From: a virus
Taxonomy: Duplodnaviria > Heunggongvirae > Uroviricota > Caudoviricetes
DNA: 35,047 bases
IMG/VR virus record: IMGVR_UViG_2534682060_000007
Span: 1 to 35,047 of that record
Direction: 5' to 3' (one strand)
Under the pieces are notes generated by a model that did no database searches, was not told the origin of the DNA, and was given only the letters and a program-made list of their open reading frames with translations. Positions 2 to 28,786 of the stretch are shown here, piece after piece; the stretch's first letter is position 1; the number at the start of each line of letters is the position of its first letter. Position numbers and translations under genes: made by a program.

Positions 2-442
2 AAAGAAGTGCGTCTGCGTAATGCTTACGTCATTAAGGCTGAACGCGTGGAGAAAGATGCCGAAGGCAATATCACCACCATCTTCTGTACCTACGATGCC
101 GATACTTTAAGCAAAGATCCGGCAGATGGTCGTAAAGTGAAAGGCGTTATCCACTGGGTAAGCGCGGCCCATGCGCTGCCGGTTGAAATTCGCCTGTACG
201 ACCGTCTGTTCAGTGTACCGAACCCAGGTGCTGCGGATGATTTCCTGTCGGTGATTAACCCGGAATCGCTGGTGATCAAACAGGGCTTTGCTGAACCGTC
301 GCTGAAAGAAGCGGTAGCGGGTAAAGCATTCCAGTTTGAGCGTGAAGGTTATTTCTGCCTCGACAGCCGCCATTCCACGGCGGAAAAACCGGTATTTAAC
401 CGCACCGTTGGGCTGCGTGATACCTGGGCGAAGTTAGGTTAA
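2..442 (+). CDS. glnS: glutaminyl-tRNA synthetase, 3' end (ORF runs off left edge of window)
   Basis: Frame open from position 2; C-terminal sequence ...[30 protein letters not shown]...[15 protein letters not shown] recognised as enterobacterial GlnS anticodon-binding region; TAA stop 440-442. Confidence 0.7.
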
Positions 443-464: not shown

Positions 465-494
465 AGTAAACGCCGCTACTGCGGCGTTTTTTAC
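465..494. terminator. Rho-independent terminator, likely bidirectional (glnS and convergent dam)
   Basis: GC stem cgccgc/gcggcg with tact loop, flanked by A-run upstream and T-run downstream. Confidence 0.6.
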
Positions 495-1396
495 TTCATT
501 ATCGCAATTATATCGTTAGCAACTACACGTGTTGACGCCTTGCAGGAAACCGACCGTCTGGCTGCCATATGATGTACTTTAAACCCGTTTCCTTCATATA
601 GTTCACGGATGTTTGGCGCACCACTATTTGTTATCACTACCTTAGCGCCGCGCTGGTGGGCTTCCACCAATAGAGATACCAGCCGTTTCTGTTCGTCGAA
701 ACGGAAGCTATTTCCTGAATAACTGGTAAACCCTTCTGTATCCGGCAGCGGTTCATACGGCGGATCGCAAAAAATCACATCGCCTTCACCAGCCGCCTCG
801 ATGACGCCAGCAAAGTCACCTGATACAAAGGACGTGTTTTTGAGTACGTCATCAGCCAAAAATGCCTCCATCTCTGCATGTGGGAAGTAGGGCGCTTTGT
901 ATTTGCCATACCCCACGTTGAACTCGCCATTTTGGTTGTACCGCGTTACGCCATTAAAACAGTGCCGATTAAGGTACAAAAAGGCGGCAGCATGATGTAG
1001 CTGGTCATACTTTCCTCTGTTAAATGCCTCACGCACTTCGAGGTAAGCGTCAGCGTTGTTGTAATTTTGGAAAAAACTATATGACAGCGTGACGAGCGAA
1101 TGTCCTTCTCGCTGCAATGTCTGATAGAAGTTAATCAGGTCACCGTTAATATCATTAAGCAGGTTGTGGTGAAATCCTGCATTTGTAAATACGGAACCGC
1201 CACCAACGAATGGTTCTATTAACCGCTTGCCGTGTGGTAGATGCTCAAGCACTGTAGGCAACTCTGAGAATTTACCGCCTACCCATTTGAAGATCGGGCG
1301 CTCATATTCATCCGGAGTCCGAATGGTGCGCATATAGCTAATTTCAGCCATCGTATCCTGTTTTTTTATGGCTATGCTTGCTATAGATTTACTCAT
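491..1396 (-). CDS. dam: DNA adenine methyltransferase (Dam family, orphan)
   Basis: DPPY catalytic motif, FVGGGS AdoMet-binding motif; start placed at ATG 1396 with AAGGGGG RBS (ORF table start 1453 is upstream in-frame). Confidence 0.85.
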   Translation of the reverse strand: MSKSIASIAIKKQDTMAEISYMRTIRTPDEYERPIFKWVGGKFSELPTVLEHLPHGKRLIEPFVGGGSVFTNAGFHHNLLNDINGDLINFYQTLQREGHSLVTLSYSFFQNYNNADAYLEVREAFNRGKYDQLHHAAAFLYLNRHCFNGVTRYNQNGEFNVGYGKYKAPYFPHAEMEAFLADDVLKNTSFVSGDFAGVIEAAGEGDVIFCDPPYEPLPDTEGFTSYSGNSFRFDEQKRLVSLLVEAHQRGAKVVITNSGAPNIRELYEGNGFKVHHMAARRSVSCKASTRVVANDIIAIMK

Positions 1397-2039
1397 AGAG
1401 CACCCCCTTATTCGCTTCGAAAATTGCCTTTGCGAATCCATGCGGAGTAGCACTTCGAAAATTAGCCCTTTCAGGTCCAGGTGGCGCGGTATGGATTCTG
1501 TTATCTGGCTTGCCTAATGATTCGTCCATTAGGGCATCAGGCATGACAAAGCCTTGCCCGCTCCAGAGGCATGTTTTTTTGGTGTAATTGTCTTCCTTGC
1601 AATATGCAGTGAAGTGGTAAGGATGGAAGATGTGATCAGGTTTACGCCAGAATGTCGATATTTGGCTGACCGGGTTTTCAATCATGTACGGGCAACCAAT
1701 CATCTTTGCAATATCGTAACACTGCCAGACGACCTGCATCGCTTTGAACTGGAAAAACGGATCTTTGTCAGCCTTATGCGCAAACCAGCGCGCACCGGAA
1801 ACAGCAAGGTCCGTGCACGGCGGAAAACCAGCTAAAAACACAATACGTTGTAAATTATTTCGGAGAAAAGCATAAACTTCATCACTATCGATAATCGCAC
1901 TGATACGTGTCAGAACTGCGCCTGATTGCATCAGCTCATCTCTGGTCTCTGCGTGTTGTGGATCGACGATAACAGCATCTATACCATGCTCCAGCCAGGG
2001 GGCGACCATTTTCCCCGTGAAATCACAAAGACTCACCAT
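1389..2039 (-). CDS. putative small DNA methyltransferase-like protein (C5-cytosine MTase-like PC and ENP motifs)
   Basis: GFPPCTDLAVSGA resembles C5-MTase motif IV (PC dipeptide), MIENPV resembles motif VI ENV; stop overlaps dam start by 8 nt; start at internal ATG 2039 is uncertain (no clear RBS). Confidence 0.4.
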   Translation of the reverse strand: MVSLCDFTGKMVAPWLEHGIDAVIVDPQHAETRDELMQSGAVLTRISAIIDSDEVYAFLRNNLQRIVFLAGFPPCTDLAVSGARWFAHKADKDPFFQFKAMQVVWQCYDIAKMIGCPYMIENPVSQISTFWRKPDHIFHPYHFTAYCKEDNYTKKTCLWSGQGFVMPDALMDESLGKPDNRIHTAPPGPERANFRSATPHGFAKAIFEANKGVLYE

Positions 2040-2052
2040 CAGAGGTCTATTG

Positions 2053-2958
2053 TTAACGTTCTGCTTCACCACCAACGGCCTCCACCAGCGAAGTGAACAT
2101 CGCGGATAATTCAGCAGTAAACAGGATAAAGTCAGCGTCAAATCGTTGCGCAACATCCTCTCGATCAATATCGTCGTTCTGGTCGTACAATTCGTCGCTG
2201 AACGACAAAGCCTTGATACTCATATCGTCATTCAGTCTGAAAAATGCACGGTCTTGCCAGTTAACCGCAACTGTGGTTGCAACCTTACCAGCTTCTATAT
2301 GACTCATGATCTCGTCGGATAGCAGGTCCACTTTTTTGCAGCGGACCGCGCCGCCATCATCAAGCAATGCTTTTAAGGTCGCTTCCTCACCGGCACGGAA
2401 ACCGTTCGGGAAGCCATTTTTAATCCAGCCAGTGATGGTCAGTTCTAATGGGTCTTTCGGAGAGAAGGGGACAACGGGCAAGCTGCCAAGCGATTTCCGT
2501 AACAAAGCCAGCTGATCCTCTGCTTTTTTAGCACTGCTGGCCTCGACAAAAACCAGATGATTGCTTCGGTCTATCAGGATTTTAGCGACTGATTTTCTCG
2601 TGAAAGCACGAGGAAGCAGAGAGTGAAGCACTTCATCCTTCAGCGAATCTTTTTCAGTCTTCTTCAGCTTTCTGTCTTGCTCTTCTTCAAGTGTCAGGAT
2701 TTTTTTCTGTAACTCTTCTTTGAGCACTTGAGAGGGTAGGATTTTTTCCTCTCGTTTATGCTGTATCAGAAGAAAACCTTGGTATTCATGGGTGAGGTTG
2801 TCGCCAAGAACGGGGGTCCAACCAGCTTTAGCCATATCCTGAGAACCGCATGGGGTAAACACAAACTTGCTAAGGGCTGCATTTACTTCTGCAGTATCCC
2901 AGCTAACTTCGCGTGAAAGACGATAGATGAAGATATTTTTGAAAGCGACTGATCTCAT
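2053..2958 (-). CDS. rdgC: recombination-associated protein RdgC homologue
   Basis: Full-length similarity to E. coli RdgC as recalled (YRLSRE..., [14 protein letters not shown]..., [23 protein letters not shown]..., [18 protein letters not shown]...GGEAER); GGTGAG RBS. Confidence 0.85.
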
Positions 2959-6369: not shown

Positions 6370-6672
6370 ATGACCAAAAAAATTAACATAAAGGATTTCA
6401 GGGATGCGTGGCTTGATGATTTTTTTGAATTTTCAACACCACATAGAAAGATACCTCCTGATATTCATATGACATTGTCACGGAAGTTGGACATTATCAA
6501 TGCCGCAACTACCTGTAAGGATTTAAGATCACCACCAGGTAATCGGTATGAGGAACTGTCAGGGAAGCTAAATGGCTATTCATCAGTAAGGGTGAATAAG
6601 CAATATAGGTTAATTTTTAAGTGGGTTAACGGAAAGGCCGAGGACTTGTATCTCGACCCTCACAAATACTAA
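6370..6672 (+). CDS. higB: HigB-like killer toxin (RelE/ParE superfamily)
   Basis: 100 aa; C-terminal YRLIFKW...DLYLDPHKY pattern typical of HigB-like killer proteins; GGAGGA RBS; directly precedes HigA-type antidote. Confidence 0.7.
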   Translation: MTKKINIKDFRDAWLDDFFEFSTPHRKIPPDIHMTLSRKLDIINAATTCKDLRSPPGNRYEELSGKLNGYSSVRVNKQYRLIFKWVNGKAEDLYLDPHKY

Positions 6673-6742
6673 AACAGATACCCGGTTACGGACCGGGTTC
6701 TGACCAGAGTCCACTTAATACGCACGCTAGTAAGGGCAAAAA

Positions 6743-7081
6743 ATGAAACAGGCAACCAGAAAACCGACGACCGTAGGTGATATCCTGCTGTACGAATACC
6801 TGGAGCCGTTAGAGCTGAAGATCAACGAGTTGGCAGAAATACTTCATGTTCATCGTAACACCGTAAGTGCTCTTGTTAATAATAATCGTAAGCTAACGAT
6901 GGATATGGCATATCGCCTGGCAAAAGCATTCGATACTTCTGTAGATTTTTGGATTAATCTTCAGACCGCAGTAGACCTGTGGGAAGTCGAAAATGATATG
7001 CGCGTTCAGGAAGAGTTAAGTCGTATCAATACTGCTGAAAAATTTATTTCTCAGCGGAACCTGAATAAAAAAGCAGCCTGA
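6743..7081 (+). CDS. higA: HigA antitoxin (XRE-type HTH antidote)
   Basis: VGDILLYEYLEPLELKINELAEILHVHRNTVSALVNNNRKLTMDMAYRLAKAFDTSVDFWINLQ matches HigA/VapI-type HTH antidote pattern. Confidence 0.8.
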   Translation: MKQATRKPTTVGDILLYEYLEPLELKINELAEILHVHRNTVSALVNNNRKLTMDMAYRLAKAFDTSVDFWINLQTAVDLWEVENDMRVQEELSRINTAEKFISQRNLNKKAA

Positions 7082-13702: not shown

Positions 13703-13885
13703 AATGGCAGCCTCCTTTTGCTAATTTAAGGAGCTACCGCGTGAGGTTCCAATCTCAATGGCGGTAGCACTGACTGGGTTGGAACTACCGGCGCAAAAGG
13801 GAACCGGCCTGCCTTTCGGCAGCCCAGCCAGCACTACCATTGATCTCTGAGCTAAACGCTACGTATGGCTGTGCGATGGCATGAC
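13703..13885 (-). ncRNA. candidate structured leader / antisense-type regulatory RNA upstream of the antirepressor operon
   Basis: Several inverted repeats: 13733-13740/13761-13768 (8 bp), 13763-13778/13823-13838 (16 bp, perfect only with G-U pairs in the minus-strand transcript), GNRA hairpin near 13806-13821. Confidence 0.3.
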
Positions 13886-13887
13886 AC

Positions 13888-13910
13888 AAAAAAAGACGCT
13901 TTCGGCGTCT
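13888..13910 (-). terminator. Rho-independent terminator (minus strand)
   Basis: Hairpin agacgc/gcgtct followed on the minus strand by a 7-U run. Confidence 0.5.
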
Positions 13911-14014
13911 GTGTCGCCTTTTGCATTATCCGGGGTTCCAATCCCGGCACCCGTTTTTCTAAGGTGCCGTAGAAATATACCCCACGATAATGCCAGGGCG
14001 CAACAGTCAGTATT

Positions 14015-14500: not shown

Positions 14501-14519
14501 AAATGTTAGAAAACTAATT
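14501..14519. promoter_or_regulatory. recurring motif site 2 (AATGTTAGAAAACTAATT)
   Basis: Direct sequence match to the recurring motif; overlaps the stop codon of the 14514-15092 gene. Confidence 0.35.
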
Positions 14520-15092
14520 TATCAATTCAATCGCCATCTGATACAACGCCATTTCATCGGCATTGTGCCGTATGAAATCTGCTTTTCCGCCTATTTTTCC
14601 ATCAGCATGAACAGGGACCAGCCAGGGATATTGTTCTCGGACCTCGGCTGGCGCTGCGTACTGGTGGTGCCATTTACACAAAGGGAGGACATATTTATGC
14701 GCGTTCTCTGCCGTTCTCCCGAAGATATGGTGCAGGGATACCACTGGGCTATGTTGCCCGTGAATATGGCAGGCAATGCAGGGGAGAGTACCGATAGCGG
14801 TCTGTATCCGGCGTTCATCGGCTGTGAGTGATCTGCCCTTCAGGCCGCGTGACGTGCGTGTTTTTTTGGACGGAGCGGATACAGCTTTCTCTTTTCTCCG
14901 CTGGTCATATTGCTTTGCTTTTTCAATTCTCTTTTGCCGATATTCAGGCGATGCGGCTTTTTCTCTCGCTCGCTGCTGCTGGCGTTGAGCTTGTTGAAGG
15001 CGCTTTGCCCTTTGTTCCTCTCGCCAGGCCGGGTCAGCCAATCTTTGCATGGCTTTTTGTCTCTGTTTCTCCCAGTAGCTCTGTTTCTGCAT
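14514..15092 (-). CDS. HNH-nuclease-domain protein (NinG/YbcO-like) with K/R-rich coiled-coil N-terminus
   Basis: C-terminal CIAC...LHHIFGRTAENAHKYVLPLCKWHH fits the C-x2-C / HH / N / H HNH pattern. Confidence 0.55.
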   Translation of the reverse strand: MQKQSYWEKQRQKAMQRLADPAWREEQRAKRLQQAQRQQQRAREKAASPEYRQKRIEKAKQYDQRRKEKAVSAPSKKTRTSRGLKGRSLTADERRIQTAIGTLPCIACHIHGQHSPVVSLHHIFGRTAENAHKYVLPLCKWHHQYAAPAEVREQYPWLVPVHADGKIGGKADFIRHNADEMALYQMAIELIN

Positions 15093-15174: not shown

Positions 15175-15364
15175 ACATTAATATCATTCCTGATAACTGT
15201 TTGGAGGACATGATGCTTATAGCTTTAAGTGCGATCCACCAGCCATCTGTGAATGAGATTGGCCTGTTCTATGTGTTGTTTTTCGGGGCGTTGGCGCTAC
15301 TTGAGCTTGGTATTGAGCTTTTCGCAGTGCTTATGTTTTGCGTCACGATTTTGGGGAAATTTTG

Positions 15365-15976
15365 ATGGTGAAACGTATTTTGAAAATTTACATCGCGGGG
15401 CCGATGACTGGTTATCCAGATTACAACCGTGCGGCGTTTAATGCGAAAGCGAGCGAGCTGATGGCTGAAGGGCATATCGTTCTGAATCCAGCGGTGTTAC
15501 CTGGTGGCCTTTGCCAGAGTGAATACATGGATATTTGCCTGGCAATGGTGCGTTCTGCTGATGCGATTTATTTGCTCAATCGATGGGAAGAATCGGTTGG
15601 TGCTCGTGCAGAGCACGCGCTGGCTGAAAAGCTGGGGCTGACTGTAATTTATGAGTCACCAACCAACATTGAATGCCAGGTTGCTCCGCATATTTACCGG
15701 GAACTGGTCAATGCACTGCGTGATATCGCTGCTGTATATCACGGCACAGAACAGCTTCGTGAGCGTTTAGCCCATACCATTTCCTATTACCTTTCTTTAT
15801 CTCATGAGCACAAGCTCCGCCAGAAGGTAATGATCAAATTTATCATGAGGTTATCGAAATCCCTGGCAAACGCCGATCCAAAGAATCCATTACCGAAAGA
15901 GGCAATGAATTACCTGAAGTCCTGCAACGTTGTTTCTGAAGATGGCGTTCTTTTGGTTAGAAGGAGTTCTGCGTGA
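15365..15976 (+). CDS. DUF4406-like protein (nucleoside 2-deoxyribosyltransferase-like fold) with C-terminal extension
   Basis: IYIAGPMTGYPDYNRAAF motif typical of DUF4406 / N-deoxyribosyltransferase-like proteins; start at ATG 15365. Confidence 0.6.
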   Translation: MVKRILKIYIAGPMTGYPDYNRAAFNAKASELMAEGHIVLNPAVLPGGLCQSEYMDICLAMVRSADAIYLLNRWEESVGARAEHALAEKLGLTVIYESPTNIECQVAPHIYRELVNALRDIAAVYHGTEQLRERLAHTISYYLSLSHEHKLRQKVMIKFIMRLSKSLANADPKNPLPKEAMNYLKSCNVVSEDGVLLVRRSSA

Positions 15977-19344: not shown

Positions 19345-19652
19345 GCATCATTAAAGAAATGCCGGTAGAACGTGATGAATATGGCTGCTGGACACATCCG
19401 GAGTATGAGAAGTTTTGCGCAGGTCGTGAATATATTTCCACTGAGGAATTTGACGCCTGGATGAAGGAAAATAATCTTCAGTGGACTATTCGCAGTATGG
19501 ATGAAGATGATTTTGATCTGGACGCAGCTGGTCCCGATATTGCCGCCTGGGAACCGGAGCGACCAGAGGGTGAAGGCTGGTTTGTTGGCTCTATTCATGA
19601 CACTGAAGATGGTCCAGTTTGTATCTGGCTGCGGGAGAAGGTTGCCGCATGA
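19341..19652 (+). CDS. hypothetical protein
   Basis: 103-aa ORF (GTG start), ATGA overlap with phosphatase gene. Confidence 0.45.
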
Positions 19653-20341
19653 TCCAGACTATGCATGAAGTGAATTTATATAGCCGTATTGATGGTTCTG
19701 GCTACAGAAACATATGGGTTGTTGGTGATCTGCATGGTTGCTACACCAGACTGATGTCCGAACTCCATCGTGTGGATTTTGACCCGGCGCAGGATTTACT
19801 GATATCGGTTGGCGACCTTATCGATCGCGGTACTGAAAATGTCGAATGTCTGGAACTATTGCAGATGCCCTGGTTCAGGGCAGTAATGGGGAACCATGAG
19901 CGGTTGATGCTTGATGCGTTAAGTCCTGATGGCAACGTGAATAACTGGCTAATGAATGGCGGACAATGGTTCTTCATGCTGGGCACTGATCAGGAAATAT
20001 TAGCCAAGGCGCTGGTGGAGCTGGTAAAGCGTCTGCCATATATCATTGAGTTGAACACCGGGCATGAAACTATCGTTATAGCCCATGCCGACTATCCAGG
20101 TGGAGAGTACCAGTTCGGTAAGGATGTGTCGCTTTTTGATGTTGTCTGGTCGCGCAGTCGCGTCGGTGATTCGATAGATGGCATTGGTGGAGAAATCACA
20201 GGCGCAGATCGCTTTATCTTTGGGCACACACCGGTACGAAGACCAAAAGCATACTGGAATCAGCACTACATAGACACGGGCGCGGTTTTTTGCGGAAATC
20301 TGACGCTAATGCAGGTGAAGGGAGGGAAGCTTAAAGTCTGA
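19649..20341 (+). CDS. serine/threonine protein phosphatase (lambda NinI / PPP family)
   Basis: Metallophosphatase motifs GDLHGC, GDLIDRG, GNHE; start at ATG 19649 (MIQTMHEV). Confidence 0.85.
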
Positions 20342-20439: not shown

Positions 20440-21435
20440 ATGAGTGCAATAATCACCCCATATGTCGTAAATGAAACTGGTGTGGCTGTCTTTCCTGTAG
20501 ATAAGCCCACCAGCAATTACATCGGCGCAGGACGCCGTTTTCTTATATCCCCATTGCCGCGTGAACAGGCTGAAAACACCCCTGATGGTGTCGTTGACCT
20601 GAATTATTCACTGGTTGCCAACCAGTCACTGGCACCCTTTTTTCAAAGTGAGCGTGTATTTAACGCGTTAGGTGGTGAGGATTCTCTCGTTCACTGGGTT
20701 AGCACCAACATTCACGATTGCCAGGCGCATGATAAGCGCGATTGCAGCCACCAGCTAACCACCCATTTCTATAACGGTTCTGCCGTTCGCCTGTGCTGGA
20801 AGCATGATGCGGAATACATGATGAAGGGATACGGCAAGCTGGAAGACCAACTGTCACGGAATCGCGCCAACTGGATTATGAACTGGGCTGCCAGCGAGTT
20901 AAAACTTCCGCCGGATCGCGATCTGAGCATGGTTGAACTCACCTTTTGGGCCATTCGCCGGAATCTTAAAGACGAACTGCCTGATGAAGCTGGTCGCATT
21001 GCATTTTGTCAGCCAAAAACTGAAATCCCTACCGGTACGCTGAAAGAATCAGATATCACCTGGGAGCACAGTACCCGCGAGCTGGTGGACATAACCGCAG
21101 AGCAGATCGTCAACCTGTCTGTAGATGAGGATTCCGGCCTGCTTTATATGCGCCGACCAAAAGCGGTCCTCGGTAAAAGCCCGGCTTATCTCCGGTTTGT
21201 GGTTTCTCGTCCGTGCATCGGATGCGGTGGCAAAGTTAACCACCCGTTCATGTACCGCGCCCGCTCGTTAAACGAACACGACCGCTGGGCTGTTCCTCTT
21301 TGCGATGACTGCGCCAGAAGCGCAGAAAACGATGTTCGGGCATGGGAAAAAGCACATGGCATACGCCTTTACGTAGCCGCTAACCAGCTTTTTGACTTCG
21401 CCATCGAGCGCGGAGTGATCACGTTCAATAACTGA
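20440..21435 (+). CDS. phage protein with C-terminal Cys-rich zinc-binding / HNH-like motif
   Basis: C-terminal RPCIGCGGKVNHPFMY...NEHDRWAVPLCDDCAR (C-x2-C ... H ... C-x2-C). Confidence 0.55.
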   Translation: MSAIITPYVVNETGVAVFPVDKPTSNYIGAGRRFLISPLPREQAENTPDGVVDLNYSLVANQSLAPFFQSERVFNALGGEDSLVHWVSTNIHDCQAHDKRDCSHQLTTHFYNGSAVRLCWKHDAEYMMKGYGKLEDQLSRNRANWIMNWAASELKLPPDRDLSMVELTFWAIRRNLKDELPDEAGRIAFCQPKTEIPTGTLKESDITWEHSTRELVDITAEQIVNLSVDEDSGLLYMRRPKAVLGKSPAYLRFVVSRPCIGCGGKVNHPFMYRARSLNEHDRWAVPLCDDCARSAENDVRAWEKAHGIRLYVAANQLFDFAIERGVITFNN

Positions 21436-21451
21436 TGAGGTGGATCAAAAA

Positions 21452-22138
21452 ATGAAAGAACGCGGGATGATTTTTAACGATGAGATGGTCAGGGCCATCC
21501 TCGAAGGAAGGAAAACGCAGACGCGGCGGATAATGAAAAATCAGCCTGCGGAAGTTGGTCCAGAAGCACCAGTGATGGTTAGAAAAATTGGTGCAGGTTT
21601 TCAGTGGTACGGGGCTGATGGTGTAAGCAGTGTTTTCAATTGCCCCTTTGGTATCGTCGGCGATCGAATTTGGGTTCGTGAAACATGGGCGATATTAGGC
21701 AATGAAGATGGTTGCAGTGTGGACTGGAACGACAACCTTTGTCGTGACGATGAGAAGAACGCAGCAAGGATTTATCGGGCCAGTTGTGAGCAAAAGCCTG
21801 GTGATTACGGTTTGTGGTCGATACCCGATGATGCCGACTGGAAACCTCACACTGTGAATGAAAAGTTTGATGGCGGGTGGCGTCCATCAATTCACATGCC
21901 GCGCTGGGCTTCGCGTATTTTGCTGGAAATTACCGACGTGCGTGTGGAACGGCTGCGTGATATGAGCGAGGCAGATGCTAACGCAGAAGGCGCATCTCCG
22001 GCGATGTACAAAATTACGCCGCCGGAAGCTGTTTATCGCGTTGGTTTTGGTGATATCTGGCGCAGTATTTACGGGCAGGATAACTGGCTATCTAACCCGT
22101 GGGTATGGGTAATCGAGTTTAAGCGCGTTCAGGAATAA
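21452..22138 (+). CDS. ASCH/PUA-like domain protein
   Basis: N-terminal MVRAILEGRKTQTRR resembles the ASCH GxKxxExR motif (imperfect); start ATG 21452. Confidence 0.5.
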   Translation: MKERGMIFNDEMVRAILEGRKTQTRRIMKNQPAEVGPEAPVMVRKIGAGFQWYGADGVSSVFNCPFGIVGDRIWVRETWAILGNEDGCSVDWNDNLCRDDEKNAARIYRASCEQKPGDYGLWSIPDDADWKPHTVNEKFDGGWRPSIHMPRWASRILLEITDVRVERLRDMSEADANAEGASPAMYKITPPEAVYRVGFGDIWRSIYGQDNWLSNPWVWVIEFKRVQE

Positions 22139-22141
22139 ACC

Positions 22142-23020
22142 GTGAGTATGCATCAAGTTGTCAGCTTTTCAGGTGGACGAACATCGGCTTATCTCGTTCA
22201 TCTGATGGAAGCACAGCGAAAAGCTGGCGCTAGCGTCCATTTCATTTTTATGGATACCGGCTGTGAACATCCTCTGACGTATCGCTTTATTCGTGAGGTT
22301 GTGAAGTTCTGGAACGTACCGCTAACGGTGTTGCAGGTCGATATAAATCCAGAACTTGGGCAGCCAAATGGTTATACGGAATGGGAACCAAAGGATATTC
22401 AGACGCGAATGCCGGTGCTTAAACCGTTTATGGACATGGTTAAAAAGTACGGTACGCCTTACATCGGCGGCGCGTTCTGTACTGACAGGCTAAAACTCAC
22501 CCCTTTCACGAAATATTGCGATGACCATTTTGGGCGAGGGAATTACATCACATGGCTGGGTATTCGTGCGGACGAACACCGTAGGCTGAAACCGAAACCG
22601 GGCGTCCGGTATCTTGCAGAACTGTCAGATTTTGATAAGTCGGATGTTATTCGGTGGTGGCGAAAACAACCTTTTGATTTGCAAATCCCGGAGCACCTCG
22701 GGAACTGTGTTTTTTGCATCAAAAAGTCAACGCAAAAGCTGGGGCTTGCATGTAAAGACGAACCTGGTCTGATGCGGGTTTTTAATGAACTGGTTACAGG
22801 CAAACACGTCAGGGATGGTCATCGCAGAACAGGTAAAGACGTTATGTACCGTGGTCACCTGACGCTTGACGGGATTGCCAGAATGTATGCCGACAGCGAC
22901 TACAGAAATTTGTATCAGGCGATGGTGCAGGCCAAGCGGTTTGATACTGGTTCGTGTTCCGAATCATGTGAAATCTGGGGTGACCAATTGGAGTTGAAAT
23001 TCGAAGAGGTAGTGGTATGA
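22142..23020 (+). CDS. phosphoadenosine-phosphosulfate (PAPS) reductase-family protein
   Basis: PP-loop VVSFSGGRTSAYL near N-terminus; several Cys clusters toward C-terminus. Confidence 0.7.
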   Translation: MSMHQVVSFSGGRTSAYLVHLMEAQRKAGASVHFIFMDTGCEHPLTYRFIREVVKFWNVPLTVLQVDINPELGQPNGYTEWEPKDIQTRMPVLKPFMDMVKKYGTPYIGGAFCTDRLKLTPFTKYCDDHFGRGNYITWLGIRADEHRRLKPKPGVRYLAELSDFDKSDVIRWWRKQPFDLQIPEHLGNCVFCIKKSTQKLGLACKDEPGLMRVFNELVTGKHVRDGHRRTGKDVMYRGHLTLDGIARMYADSDYRNLYQAMVQAKRFDTGSCSESCEIWGDQLELKFEEVVV

Positions 23021-23583
23021 CAAACAAAATTGACTATCAAAAACTTCGTGAAATCGCTGAAAAAACAAAAATTGCTGGTGAAGCACCTGTAATGCCTTTC
23101 GATCAGCGAATTAATGCGCTTAACGATTTTATGAAGCACTTTTCGCCAGATATCGCGCTGGCATTGTTGGATGAACGGGAAAGAAACCAGCAATACATCA
23201 AACGCCGCGACCAGGAGAACGAGGAAATTGCGCTAACGGTAGGGAAGCTGCGTGTTGAGCTGGAAGCCGCAGAGAAGCGCATTGCAGAACTGGAAGCACG
23301 GGAAATAAAACCAGCCAAAGGCGAAGTTCTTGTCGTTGTTTCTGGTTTTACTGGTTGCGGAAAAAGCGCCATCGCCGGGGAAATAGAAATTGCGATGAAA
23401 GCTATTGGTGTGCCGGTTCAATGGACTAATGGCGATGCAGAAAAGCATATGACCGGCGCTGACTGGCTGACAGCGATTGAGATGTACAAACCAACTGTGC
23501 GCATCGTGGAAGTTAATGTGCCACGCGTCGCTGGCATTTGCATCAAAGGAGACGCAGGAGAGCAAAACGATGAAAAACCGTAA
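23017..23583 (+). CDS. coiled-coil early protein related to the Ea22-like paralogs
   Basis: Shares LTVGKLRVELEAAEKRIAELE segment, also at DNA level, with 17966-18607. Confidence 0.55.
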   Translation: MTNKIDYQKLREIAEKTKIAGEAPVMPFDQRINALNDFMKHFSPDIALALLDERERNQQYIKRRDQENEEIALTVGKLRVELEAAEKRIAELEAREIKPAKGEVLVVVSGFTGCGKSAIAGEIEIAMKAIGVPVQWTNGDAEKHMTGADWLTAIEMYKPTVRIVEVNVPRVAGICIKGDAGEQNDEKP

Positions 23584-25113: not shown

Positions 25114-25370
25114 TGGATGTAAAAGAGAAGGTTTTGCAGGTGATGCGTTCCCGGGCTGCCCTGCAAGATAAAGCTCTCGGCGGGGAATATCCATTCAGGA
25201 TGGCAACCTGGAATCTGCGGTTGGCAATGGAGAAGGAATTTCCTGATGAAGAATGGCGTTCGGCAGATTTGCGCAAAATTCTTATGGAGCTGGCTAAAGA
25301 CGGAACAGTATCCAAAGATACCCATGCCAGCCGGATTGGTCAGGCGGTATGGAGACTGGAGGTGAGGTAA
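25110..25370 (+). CDS. hypothetical protein
   Basis: 86-aa ORF, ATGA overlap with neighbours. Confidence 0.45.
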   Translation: MMDVKEKVLQVMRSRAALQDKALGGEYPFRMATWNLRLAMEKEFPDEEWRSADLRKILMELAKDGTVSKDTHASRIGQAVWRLEVR

Positions 25371-25651
25371 TGGCTAACCTGCAACTTGCCGTTAAAGGTG
25401 AATACTTCGATGCCATGATTCGAGGGGAGAAAACGGAAGAGTATCGCCTGTGTAATGACTACTGGAATAAGCGCCTCGTTAACCGTAAGTATGACCGCCT
25501 GATTATCACAAAGGGATATCCGAAGCGCGAAGACTTCAGTCGCAGAATTGACGTCCCGTATAACGGATATGAAATAAAAACAATCACACATCCGCACTTC
25601 GGTGATAAACCGGTAAAGGTGTTCGCGATAAAAGTGAAGATTAATAGCTAA
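25370..25651 (+). CDS. small ASCH-like protein
   Basis: MIRGEKTEEYR matches GxKxxExR; start at internal ATG 25370 (MANLQLAV...). Confidence 0.55.
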   Translation: MANLQLAVKGEYFDAMIRGEKTEEYRLCNDYWNKRLVNRKYDRLIITKGYPKREDFSRRIDVPYNGYEIKTITHPHFGDKPVKVFAIKVKINS

Positions 25652-27947: not shown

Positions 27948-28169
27948 ATGCAATCCATTAACTTCCGTACCGCGCGCGGCAACTTTTCTGAAGTGCTCAA
28001 CAATGTTGAAGCCGGGGAAGAGGTTGAAATCACCCGCAGAGGCCGTGAGCCAGCAGTAATTGTCAGCAAGGCTACTTTCGAAGCCTACAAAAAAGCGGCG
28101 CTGGATGCCGAATTTGCATCTCTGTTTGACACTCTGGATTCCACCAACAAGGAACTGGTTAACCGATAA
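27948..28169 (+). CDS. phd: Phd antitoxin (prevent-host-death)
   Basis: 73-aa product [73 protein letters not shown], near-identical to P1 Phd as recalled. Confidence 0.9.
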
Positions 28170-28549
28170 TGAGGCATATATCACCGGAAGAACTTATTGC
28201 GCTTCATGATGCGAATATAAGCCGCTACGGCGGACTGCCGGGCATGTCAGATCCGGGTAGGGCAGAGGCCATTATCGGGAGAGTTCAGGCCAGAGTTGCC
28301 TACGAAGAGATCACCGACCTTTTCGAAGTCTCCGCCACCTACCTGGTGGCTACGGCGAGAGGGCATATATTCAATGATGCCAATAAGCGTACCGCGCTAA
28401 ACAGTGCGCTGCTATTTCTACGCCGTAACGGGGTGCAGGTATTTGATTCACCTGAACTGGCAGACCTTACCGTAGGGGCTGCGACCGGAGAGATATCTGT
28501 ATCTTCTGTCGCCGACACGTTACGTAGATTGTATGGTTCCGCGGAGTAG
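28169..28549 (+). CDS. doc: Doc toxin (Fic-fold kinase)
   Basis: 126 aa with Fic-type motif HIFNDANKR; overlapping stop/start with phd. Confidence 0.9.
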
Positions 28550-28751: not shown

Positions 28752-28755
28752 AAAG

Positions 28756-28786
28756 AAGCCCGCCATACCAAGCGGGCTTTTTGTTA
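28756..28786. terminator. Rho-independent terminator between convergent operons
   Basis: Stem gcccgc/gcgggc with 7-nt loop followed by TTTTTGTTATTT. Confidence 0.55.

Follow-up and report, generated by a model that had tools for sequence, protein, structure and literature searches.

A pdcB-, pmgT- and ninC-like gene trio in a P1/D6-like plasmid prophage, probably mosaic accessory content and not one DNA-modification system

The three genes considered here are homologues of phage genes that already bear names, namely pdcB and pmgT of phage P1 and ninC of phage lambda. In P1, pmgT (annotated as "putative morphogenetic function") lies beside pap with its own annotated C1-controlled promoter, and 3.4 kb separate it from pdcB, which has a different annotated promoter. 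Lambda ninC (Orf290) is an accessory early gene of the nin region, located between ninB and ninD. A CRISPRi study found ninC, pmgT and pdcB to be non-essential and dispensable for plaque formation in lambda and P1 (PMC10695390). The DUF968 family, to which PdcB and E. coli Qin YdfU belong, occurs in nin-type regions beside Q or RusA and has been assigned to His-Me finger group 7 together with YbcO/DUF1364 (PMC5714182). E. coli YqfB is an ASCH-type N4-acetylcytidine amidohydrolase of which Lys, Thr, Arg and Glu residues were found to be catalytic by mutagenesis (PMC6972931). The GKTR and GKER subgroups of ASCH proteins were defined in a 2026 bioRxiv paper, and a 2026 preprint reports that 19 of 19 assayed ASCH proteins strip ac4C from tRNA. 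Regarding the PAPS reductases of phages, a 2026 paper reports one that helps to escape the Dnd system of the host.

The window, meaning the whole stretch of 35,047 nucleotides that was analysed, is part of a P1/D6-like phage-plasmid (plasmid prophage) of approximately 93 kb. Its best DNA matches were plasmids of approximately 93 kb with Ref, Icd, Rha and the maturation control gene. The element was found to contain the P1 immI C4 antisense RNA (76.7 bits) and a Ref family match (1.3e-34), with humD and doc closing the block. The three ORFs of the trio were confirmed at their predicted positions on the plus strand (see Table 1), with gaps of 4 and 3 nt between them, and the ninC stop shares 4 nt with the start of the following Ead/Ea22-like gene. 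A gene of this kind also comes next after NinC in 16 of 80 NinC loci. Directly upstream of the trio lies a ppp-like gene, and the ppp-pdcB pair is also found in phage D6, where orf97, annotated as "similar to P1 gene ppp", is directly upstream of the pdcB-like orf98. Since the trio genes and a small second ASCH gene each have from hundreds to tens of thousands of conserved homologues, all four are taken to be real genes and not chance ORFs. The original prediction had described them as a Cys-rich HNH-like protein, two ASCH-like proteins and a PAPS-reductase-family protein, and these four domain calls stand. With profile searches, the DUF968 and PAPS_reduct domains were recovered, but Pfam ASCH remained below its cut-off for both ASCH proteins.

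Table 1. Features of the trio and of its surroundings in the window.
Feature	Position	Strand	Evidence
D12 N6-adenine methyltransferase	491-1453	opposite to trio	
Second methyltransferase-family ORF	1389-2168	opposite to trio	
Ppp/NinI-like Ser/Thr protein phosphatase (context)	19619..20341	+	Pfam Metallophos 3.9e-16; PHROG 246 "NinI-like phosphatase" 1.6e-109
PdcB/YdfU-family DUF968 protein, 331 aa	20440..21435	+	Pfam DUF968 6.4e-45; PHROG 96 "HNH endonuclease" 2e-104
Zinc-ribbon / degenerate HNH segment CIGCGGKVNHPFMYRARSLNEHDRWAVPLCDDC, residues 259-291	21214..21312	+	alignment
PmgT-like ASCH-fold protein, 232 aa from GTG	21440..22138	+	
ASCH octapeptide GRKTQTRR, G23-R30, "GKTR" YqfB type	21506..21529	+	60-homologue alignment
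Partner acidic residue E183 of PmgT-like protein	codon 21986-21988	+	
NinC homologue, 292 aa (GTG start) or 290 aa (ATG start at 22148)	22142..23020	+	
PP-loop SFSGGRTS, S8-S15	22163..22186	+	30-32 homologues
NinC cysteine motifs GNCVFCIKK (C189, C192) and GSCSESCE (C272, C276)	22700..22972	+	
Ead/Ea22-like protein (context)	23017..23583	+	Pfam Ead_Ea22 1.3e-19
Small probable ASCH protein, 93 aa	25370..25651	+	PHROG 625 5.9e-49; motif GEKTEEYR

The three genes are not co-inherited. With the window proteins as tblastn queries, a search which very divergent partners would escape, the complete trio was found in 15 of the 880 E. coli records holding any part of it (<2%) and in 14 of the 365 plasmids holding any part (~4%). 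Close relatives of the element carry one or two of the genes. Most homologues occur singly: within 5 kb flanks of IMG/VR loci, PmgT-like genes stood apart from the other query genes in 45 of 80 cases and NinC in 56 of 80, and NinC was near only five of 34 close PdcB relatives. Immediately upstream of NinC, 55 of 80 loci had a YfbR-like HD protein and 11 a PmgT-like protein, and NinC followed directly downstream of the PmgT-like gene in four of the 80 PmgT-like loci. Among sister elements, D6 has pdcB alone of the trio and pVP441 has pdcB and the pmgT-like gene without ninC. In lambdoid prophages of Klebsiella and Dickeya, the PmgT-like gene adjoins xis/int and the other two are absent. Furthermore, ninC is closest at DNA level to ninC of Stx2 phages (approximately 93% identity) and this identity stops at the flanks, which indicates its exchange as a single-gene cassette. 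Some recurrent proximity of these families does exist outside this plasmid lineage, as two Xenorhabdus loci (L224, L259) have a PmgT-like gene no more than 2.5 kb from NinC, and Mixta and Sodalis (L236, L238) have a YdfU-like gene within approximately 1-2 kb of it. Because adjacency of the trio is limited to a small group within the P1/D6-like plasmid prophages, there is no sign of a joint DNA-modification system. The stretch is probably mosaic accessory content of a P1/D6-like plasmid prophage, consisting of three independent and dispensable genes which are adjacent by chance.

The second protein of the trio shares 82% identity with P1 PmgT over residues 1-222, although in the window its gene follows pdcB instead of lying beside pap. 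Its start is more likely the ATG at 21452 (228 aa), which is preceded by a Shine-Dalgarno sequence (GAGGTGG). Pfam ASCH (PF04266) matches the protein at 17.9 bits (E 0.0052), short of the cut-off of 21.2, and this profile weakly matches 11 of 60 members of the PmgT-like family (best E 1.2e-4). The family as a whole comprises 44,442 clusters at 50% identity, which are mostly unannotated and below the Pfam ASCH threshold. In the structural model the protein adopts the ASCH beta-barrel fold, with a poorly modelled insertion of approximately 60 residues in the barrel. The ASCH-like motif, originally called imperfect, is the YqfB-type Thr variant of GxKxxExR. An alignment of 60 diverse PmgT-like homologues showed K25, R29 and R30 to be invariant and G23, T26, T28 and E183 to be at least 90% conserved. 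Direct comparison with the verified YqfB sequence placed K25, T28 and R30 at YqfB K21, T24 and R26 in a common GRKTxTxR motif (GxKxxTxR), and E183 was aligned to the catalytic YqfB E74 by hhalign; the Thr-Lys-Glu triad and the oxyanion Arg of YqfB (K21, T24, E74 and R26) are all matched. The protein differs from YqfB in being twice as large, in its insertion, in falling under the Pfam threshold and in the family-specific basic motif WRPSIHMPRWASR, within which P154, R155, A157 and R159 are invariant.

The PmgT-like protein is predicted from these residues to be a YqfB-type, N4-acylcytosine-type amidohydrolase. It keeps the Lys-Thr-Glu triad and the Arg of YqfB and would hydrolyse an N4-acyl (amide) group on cytosine; its putative substrate would probably be RNA, such as tRNA ac4C, and possibly DNA or a free nucleoside. 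A second, smaller ASCH-like gene was found as predicted further downstream. The motif of its product is the canonical GxKxxExR (GKER, Glu type) and a relative bears the RefSeq name "ASCH domain-containing protein", although the Pfam ASCH match is again below cut-off (E 0.044; 14.9 bits). The likely start of this gene is at 25370, behind a strong Shine-Dalgarno sequence.

ASCH domains had been proposed to read modified bases. On one alternative reading, the two ASCH proteins would be non-catalytic readers of a modified RNA or DNA base, similar to EVE, YTH and SRA-like PUA domains. They could then serve in sensing or inhibition, for instance by hiding modified sites so that a type IV restriction enzyme of the host does not recognise them. 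The basic motif of the PmgT-like protein could indeed touch a nucleic-acid backbone. However, the YqfB catalytic Lys, Thr, Arg and Glu residues retained across the 60 PmgT-like proteins are expected of an enzyme and not of a mere binder, and the tRNA deacetylase activity of all the ASCH proteins assayed in the 2026 preprint also stands against non-catalytic reading, which is considered rather unlikely. The original statement on ASCH domains needs sharpening, as characterised ASCH proteins are N4-acetylcytidine amidohydrolases whose catalytic residues are kept in the PmgT-like protein.

The third protein is identical to lambda NinC at 227 of 285 residues (80%) in a gap-free alignment, and the two share their length, PP-loop and cysteine motifs, with the window ninC lying downstream of the pmgT-like gene instead of between ninB and ninD. 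As originally called, it is PAPS-reductase-like, with a PP-loop and a Pfam PAPS_reduct match (4.5e-9) confined to its N-terminal part, and it also matches PHROG 424 (6e-92). Within the PP-loop, S8, S10, G11, G12, R13 and S15 are invariant among 30-32 homologues. Two further cysteines, C113 and C126, lie upstream of the cysteine motifs given in Table 1; along with C189, C192 and C276, they are invariant in both NinC alignments (A2 and A3), while C272 is invariant in A2 and at least 90% conserved in A3. The best PADLOC match was a partial one to SspD (1.4e-13 over residues 5-148), and the DndC model TIGR03183 was far under its cut-off (18.1 bits against 290.4; E 0.001). A PP-loop and a PAPS-reductase fold are probably shared with DndC and SspD, which are PAPS-reductase-family ATP pyrophosphatases acting in DNA phosphorothioation, the conserved cysteines could hold an Fe-S cluster and, as with DndC and SspD, NinC relatives are found in a DNA-related context. 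However, NinC is approximately half the size of DndC, and no cysteine desulfurase and no DndB/D/E or SspB/C partner is annotated nearby in related plasmids.

The DNA-related context of NinC is seen in family members fused to phage Dam methylases (P0365, P0377, P0389 and P0390) and in the presence of a Dam gene within 3.2 kb downstream of NinC in 15 of 48 diverse genomic loci. Vibriophages carry such fusions, for example the "Dam methyltransferase with PAPS reductase domain" of Vibrio phage 44E38.1; the N-terminal 280 residues of these are 55% identical to the window NinC with all motifs kept, and the fusions sit in a nin-like early region near NinG. The window protein differs in being without a methylase domain. 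On account of the Dam fusions, the Dam neighbourhood and the reported anti-Dnd PAPS reductase, a role in DNA modification or anti-restriction is plausible for NinC alone. The NinC homologue would be a PP-loop enzyme with a PAPS-reductase fold and six conserved cysteines that may adenylate a substrate or transfer sulfur, possibly via an Fe-S cluster or a cysteine persulfide. Its substrate may be DNA or a component of a defence system, which would make it an anti-restriction factor.

A broader reading, regarded as quite unlikely, takes the PmgT-like proteins to be erasers of N4-acyl groups on cytosine, either in host tRNA or in a nucleic-acid mark installed by a defence system or phage, and solo NinC proteins to be PP-loop enzymes, working with an Fe-S cluster or a persulfide, that would modify DNA or undermine phosphorothioate-based immunity. 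If this were true, the plasmid would hold two separate counter-defence enzymes of nucleic-acid modification as neighbours, and the two might act on cytosine or backbone chemistry of a related kind.

The first protein of the trio is 95.8% identical to D6 orf98 and has full-length homologues in P1 PdcB (38.4% identity over 99% of the query length, E 2e-65) and Qin YdfU (26% identity). Its residues 161-325 span all 171 positions of the DUF968 profile and score 153.7 bits, where the cut-off is 27.8. The full-profile match is common to PdcB and YdfU, with which the protein also shares the zinc-binding pair of cysteine pairs and an H-D dyad. Homology places the protein in the His-Me-finger (HNH) superfamily, and it has a four-cysteine zinc ribbon. 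The C-terminal arrangement of C-x2-C, H and C-x2-C noted originally is present as C259-x2-C262, H268/H280 and C288-x2-C291. The two cysteine pairs correspond to the zinc-binding CxxC pairs that flank the beta-beta-alpha element of His-Me finger nucleases. C259, C262, H280, C288 and C291 are invariant in an alignment of 15 sequences (A4) that leaves out YdfU, which has a His at the C291 position. YdfU and the YdfU-like proteins of the Mixta and Sodalis loci contain DDPHH...CHxELH at the zinc-ribbon segment, YdfU itself reading KHHNELH. In contrast, alignments of the D6-type subfamily to which the window protein belongs show that 5 residues are missing and that neither the DDPHH nor the CHxxLH site retains a conserved His, and P1 PdcB retains just one of these His residues. 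Because these motifs are not kept, nuclease activity is doubtful, although the loss is read from alignments of a short region and His268, which varies among relatives (H/R/Q/T), might substitute. It may be that the protein descends from His-Me-finger nucleases, having retained the zinc ribbon and lost the canonical catalytic histidines, and acts as a DNA-binding or accessory protein instead of as a classical HNH nuclease. Here, as with PmgT and NinC, we infer the chemistry from sequence and modelled structure.

The original proposal was that the trio serves DNA modification or modification sensing. Spelled out as one module, NinC would install a sulfur or amino mark on the DNA of the element, the ASCH protein would recognise it and the HNH-like protein would cut unmodified DNA or help to target the enzyme. 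The tight, co-oriented packing of the genes, which are probably co-transcribed, fits such a module, as do the weak but real similarity of NinC to SspD and DndC and the fact that other genera occasionally have a PmgT-like or YdfU-like gene close to NinC. Against it stand the rarity of the complete trio, the sister elements that are without one or two members, the single occurrence of most homologues, the different transcription units of pmgT and pdcB in P1 and the loss of the HNH catalytic histidines in the D6-type subfamily. No dndA/B/D/E or sspB/C genes were detected among the window ORFs, nor are they annotated in near-identical plasmids. P1 and lambda DNA are not known to carry non-canonical bases or phosphorothioates beyond host-type methylation. 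The left-end methylase genes, which had been suggested as partners, are real; they are similar to dmt-type backbone genes of P1, are separated from the trio by 18 kb on the opposite strand and have no relation to it, and no Dam gene of the PF05869 family was found anywhere in the window. A single module is thus regarded as very improbable, and the proposed link to DNA modification has some support for NinC alone and not for the trio.

It is barely conceivable that NinC is a true PAPS/APS reductase, the product of an auxiliary metabolic gene that raises cysteine synthesis in the infected host, as its Pfam and PHROG labels ("phosphoadenosine phosphosulfate reductase, moron/AMG") would have it, and a strict CysH is rejected, given that similarity to E. 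coli CysH covers only the first ~65 residues (residues 4-70 in hhalign), the catalytic ECGLH motif is missing (CysH ends in KRECGLHEG, NinC in GSCSESCEIW), the PP-loop has SGG where E. coli CysH has a degenerate SSSFGIQA, NCBIfam PAPS reductase PRK02090 reaches 21.9 bits where its cut-off is 154, and relatives are fused to or beside DNA adenine methylases among replication and recombination genes.

The locus as such matters little, being the ordinary mosaic accessory content of a phage-plasmid common in E. coli and Salmonella; what it suggests about the three families is of wider use. Lambda NinC is clearly no CysH of sulfate assimilation, and its Dam fusions and neighbourhood tie it to DNA methylation modules. 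The PdcB/D6 branch of DUF968 is, judging by its aligned motifs, probably no active HNH nuclease, contrary to its database label. P1 PmgT and a very large family of prophage proteins can be relabelled from "putative morphogenetic protein" to ASCH-fold proteins with the YqfB catalytic residues.

Each of the three ORFs at 20440–23020 carries a domain, as originally predicted, and a second ASCH-like gene is present at 25370–25651; all of the domain calls were upheld. ORF1, ORF2 and ORF3 (the trio) encode a PdcB-like DUF968 protein, a PmgT-like ASCH-fold protein and a NinC homologue, respectively (see table). On the ORF map of the window the ORFs 3′ of the trio are packed as closely as those within it, so tight packing is no trio-specific feature. 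Between 14.9 and 29 kb, a simple promoter and terminator scan detected no sigma-70 site on the + strand; it gave a single strong + strand terminator-like hairpin. However, in the P1 record promoters are annotated upstream of both humD and phd, relatives of which lie within this block of the window, and such a scan may therefore be too insensitive for operon boundaries. No NCBIfam family and no PADLOC match was found for the proteins of ORF1, ORF2 and the small ASCH gene, which thus show no link to catalogued defence systems, and sequence searches of PDB chains returned nothing usable for any of the four proteins.

Features of the trio, its surroundings and the rest of the window
Feature	Position	Strand	Remarks
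3′ end of glnS (glutamine--tRNA ligase) homologue	8-442	+	Left window edge; annotation of a near-identical plasmid
D12-class N6-adenine methyltransferase	491-1453	-	Matches a PHROG profile of 779 residues in its C-terminal half
PHROG 757 'DNA methyltransferase' ORF	1389-2168	-	No Pfam match; 65-nt overlap with preceding ORF
RelE/ParE-HigA toxin-antitoxin pair	6370-7081	+	
C4 antisense RNA, P1 immI (RF01695)	13757-13844	-	Rfam, 76.7 bits
isrK (RF01394)	13889-13967	-	Rfam, 62.5 bits
Ref	14514-15092		Family match
DUF4406 / nucleoside 2-deoxyribosyltransferase-like gene	15338-15976	+	First + strand ORF past divergent ref
Phosphatase upstream of trio	19619-20341		Counterpart in D6: orf97 ('similar to P1 gene ppp')
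ORF1	20440-21435	+	331 codons
ORF2	21440-22138	+	232 codons; 4-nt gap after ORF1; start 21440 or 21452, ATG 21452 (Shine-Dalgarno GAGGTGG) better supported than longest-ORF start
ORF3	22142-23020	+	292 codons; 3-nt gap after ORF2; start 22142 or 22148, RefSeq relatives begin at equivalent of ATG 22148
Ead/Ea22-like gene	Directly 3′ of ORF3		4-nt overlap
Small probable ASCH gene	25370-25651		Start 25349 or 25370, ATG 25370 (GGAGGTGAGG) better supported than longest-ORF start
Doc-like toxin	28169-28549	+	
Intrinsic-terminator-like hairpin	28753-28782	+	11-bp stem and T run; just after doc

The element is a P1/D6-like plasmid prophage, since the best DNA matches of the window are ~90–95 kb plasmids of E. 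coli and Salmonella, annotated with Ref, Icd, a Rha-type antirepressor and a maturation control gene, and since the window itself holds the immI C4 RNA, Ref and, at the end of the + strand block, homologues of humD and doc. Together the C4 RNA and isrK form a P1-type immI region, with Rha/Ant-like and Icd-like genes alongside. It should also be noted that an aminoacyl-tRNA synthetase gene, as at the left edge, is unusual for a P1/D6-like phage-plasmid.

The match of ORF1 to Pfam DUF968 covers the profile in full (6.4e-45), PHROG 96 'HNH endonuclease' is a further match (2e-104), and the C-terminus of the protein has the pattern CIGC...H...CDDC. ORF1 is 95.8% identical to orf98 of the related phage D6 (annotated 'similar to P1 pdcB') and 38% identical to P1 PdcB, and it aligns end to end with the DUF968 prototype, YdfU of the E. 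coli prophage Qin. As DUF968 is a member of His-Me finger group 7 (PMC5714182), the label 'HNH-like' is correct by descent. The motifs DDPHH...GTKAHD...CHxELH are found in YdfU (which itself has KHHNELH) and in two distant homologues. The D6-type subfamily keeps four cysteines and the H280-D281 dyad, with a 5-residue deletion replacing the HH motif and no histidine past the second CxxC, while P1 PdcB retains one of these histidines and has lost the others; nuclease activity of the D6-type PdcB branch is doubtful. A profile search with the PdcB alignment gave no relative of solved structure. An Orf-like relationship of DUF968 has been proposed in the literature; BLASTP gave no match between lambda NinB/Orf and the DUF968 protein. 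The cluster of a protein 100% identical to ORF1 (P0391) comprises 674 member sequences on 427 contigs. In Vibrio anguillarum phages (H88–H90) an annotated nucleoside 2-deoxyribosyltransferase adjoins the YdfU/PdcB homologue.

P1 PmgT, which bears the annotation 'putative morphogenetic function', shares 82% identity with the product of ORF2. The PmgT-like family is very large, with 44,442 clusters at 50% identity (E<=0.001). The assignment of ORF2 to ASCH was resolved by fold comparison alone; a profile search with the PmgT-like alignment found no relative of solved structure. Across 60 diverse members, K25, R29 and R30 do not vary, and conservation is 90% or higher at G23, T26, T28 and E183. 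The ORF2 motif GRKTQTRR is the counterpart of GRKTITIR in YqfB, whose reference sequence was checked against PDB 1te7, and hhalign aligned YqfB E74 to E183. YqfB is inactivated by K21A, T24A and R26A, and with E74A its activity drops 100- to 1000-fold (PMC6972931). A 2026 preprint distinguishes two types of ASCH enzyme, Thr-type (GKTR) and Glu-type (GKER), and reports removal of tRNA ac4C by all 19 ASCH proteins tested. From motif conservation and fold, PmgT-like proteins are predicted to be amidohydrolases acting on N4-acylated cytosine, and a conserved basic insert in the family, WRPSIHMPRWASR, hints at a polynucleotide substrate.

The small gene at 25370–25651 encodes the canonical ASCH octapeptide GEKTEEYR. 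Set against the GKTR and GKER types, this motif and that of ORF2 suggest that the window carries one Glu-type and one Thr-type ASCH gene. Membership of the small protein in ASCH is provisional: the profile match is weak (E 0.044), the remaining basis is the RefSeq name of a relative, and the motif region was its sole match to the PmgT profile in hhalign.

Two further associations of PmgT-like genes were observed. A HAD/PNKP-phosphatase-like protein is encoded upstream in 22 of 80 loci (IMG/VR loci around L008–L033), a position held next to P1 pmgT by pap (P1 record 83787–85417); a PNKP-related phosphatase beside a putative amidohydrolase of the ac4C type could indicate a role directed at RNA. 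In Klebsiella prophages a TraR/DksA-type zinc finger (PF01258) is fused to, or directly 3′ of, some PmgT-like proteins (P0032, 305 aa; L005–L007).

ORF3 shares 80% identity with lambda NinC over 285 residues. With Stx2-phage ninC the DNA identity is ~93%, the match stopping short of the remaining query. The PP-loop, DTGxEH and six cysteines (C113, C126, C189-x2-C192, C272-x3-C276) are conserved in NinC. A true PAPS reductase (CysH) was considered and rejected: likeness to E. coli CysH is confined to ~65 N-terminal residues and the catalytic ECGLH tail is absent, so 'PAPS reductase' names a fold and not a function. A fold search of a viral structure library matched generic 'PAPS reductase' and QueC-like entries and nothing further. 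Phage Dam methylases (PF05869) form fusions with NinC relatives of 50–55% identity (P0365, P0377, P0389, P0390), as in Vibrio phage 44E38.1 ('Dam methyltransferase with PAPS reductase domain'), and a Dam gene lies 0.1–3.2 kb downstream of NinC in 15 of 48 diverse genomic loci. A 2026 NAR paper, citing Piel et al. (2022), states that a phage PAPS reductase promotes evasion of the host Dnd system. Given these fusions, the Dam neighbourhood and the reported anti-Dnd enzyme, a DNA-directed or anti-restriction role stays plausible for NinC alone. The related plasmids have no annotated Dnd or Ssp partner genes, and no PF05869 Dam gene was found anywhere in the window.

In a Vibrio phage, Erwinia, Sodalis and Symbiopectobacterium NinC is fused to, or ~100 bp upstream of, Dam (L203, L238, L241, L242, L244), and in prophages of Xenorhabdus and Photorhabdus Dam follows 1–3 kb downstream. 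The neighbourhood counts left out many 80%-identical NinC matches in unrelated bacterial assemblies, on probable lambda-DNA contaminant contigs. These contigs (L205, L207, L210–L212, L214) are ~20–49 kb long, several being ~48.4 kb, match NinC at the 80% given by lambda NinC and come from assemblies labelled Pseudomonas, Shewanella, Oceanobacillus, Neobacillus and Chromatiales; they appear to represent lambda DNA present as a contaminant or spike-in of public assemblies.

The evidence speaks against the trio as one functional cluster. In a set of 5,426 complete E. coli genomes the 2.58 kb trio stretch is matched in part by 880 records, only 15 of which hold at least 80% of it; in PLSDB this holds for 14 of 365 plasmids. 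Gene content varies stepwise among sister elements: D6 has ppp-pdcB followed by unrelated ORFs, and the related plasmid pVP441 has pdcB and a pmgT-like gene without ninC. In P1, pmgT is served by an annotated C1-controlled promoter of its own, with pdcB 3.4 kb away, after phd-doc. Lambdoid prophages of Klebsiella and Dickeya have their PmgT-like gene at the end of the early-left operon, adjoining xis/int. Within 5 kb flanks in IMG/VR, no other query gene was found at 45 of 80 PmgT-like and 56 of 80 NinC loci, and NinC was nearby for five of 34 close PdcB relatives. Immediately upstream of NinC, 55 of 80 loci have a YfbR-like HD protein and 11 have a PmgT-like gene, and NinC stands directly 3′ of a PmgT-like gene in 4/80. 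A PmgT-like gene occurs near NinC in two Xenorhabdus loci, as does a YdfU-like gene in Mixta and Sodalis; such recurrent proximity is read as shared residence in nin-type accessory regions. Lambda ninC itself is a nin-region gene, following directly on ninB/orf. CRISPRi mapping found pmgT and pdcB of P1, and lambda ninC once Q polarity was relieved, to be non-essential for plaques (PMC10695390). By sequence, the trio is a P1-type pdcB, a P1-type pmgT and a lambdoid ninC. The original interpretation, an investment in DNA modification, finds partial support as regards NinC, a candidate DNA-modification or anti-restriction enzyme, and none as regards a three-gene module for modification or sensing.

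The left-end methylases had been drawn into the same interpretation. The genes are real, one a D12-class N6-adenine methylase and the other a second ORF of the methyltransferase family, but they look like P1 dmt-type backbone genes and have no relation to the trio. The two ORFs together resemble a split or rearranged P1 dmt-type gene, and in a relative the adenine methylase is classed by RefSeq as a partial pseudogene.

All three trio genes belong to described families with named P1 or lambda members, and hundreds of plasmids carry near-identical annotated copies; as a locus, this stretch is thus ordinary and already known. The locus itself is of little interest. The re-annotation leads have modest value, being open to direct tests in P1 and lambda.
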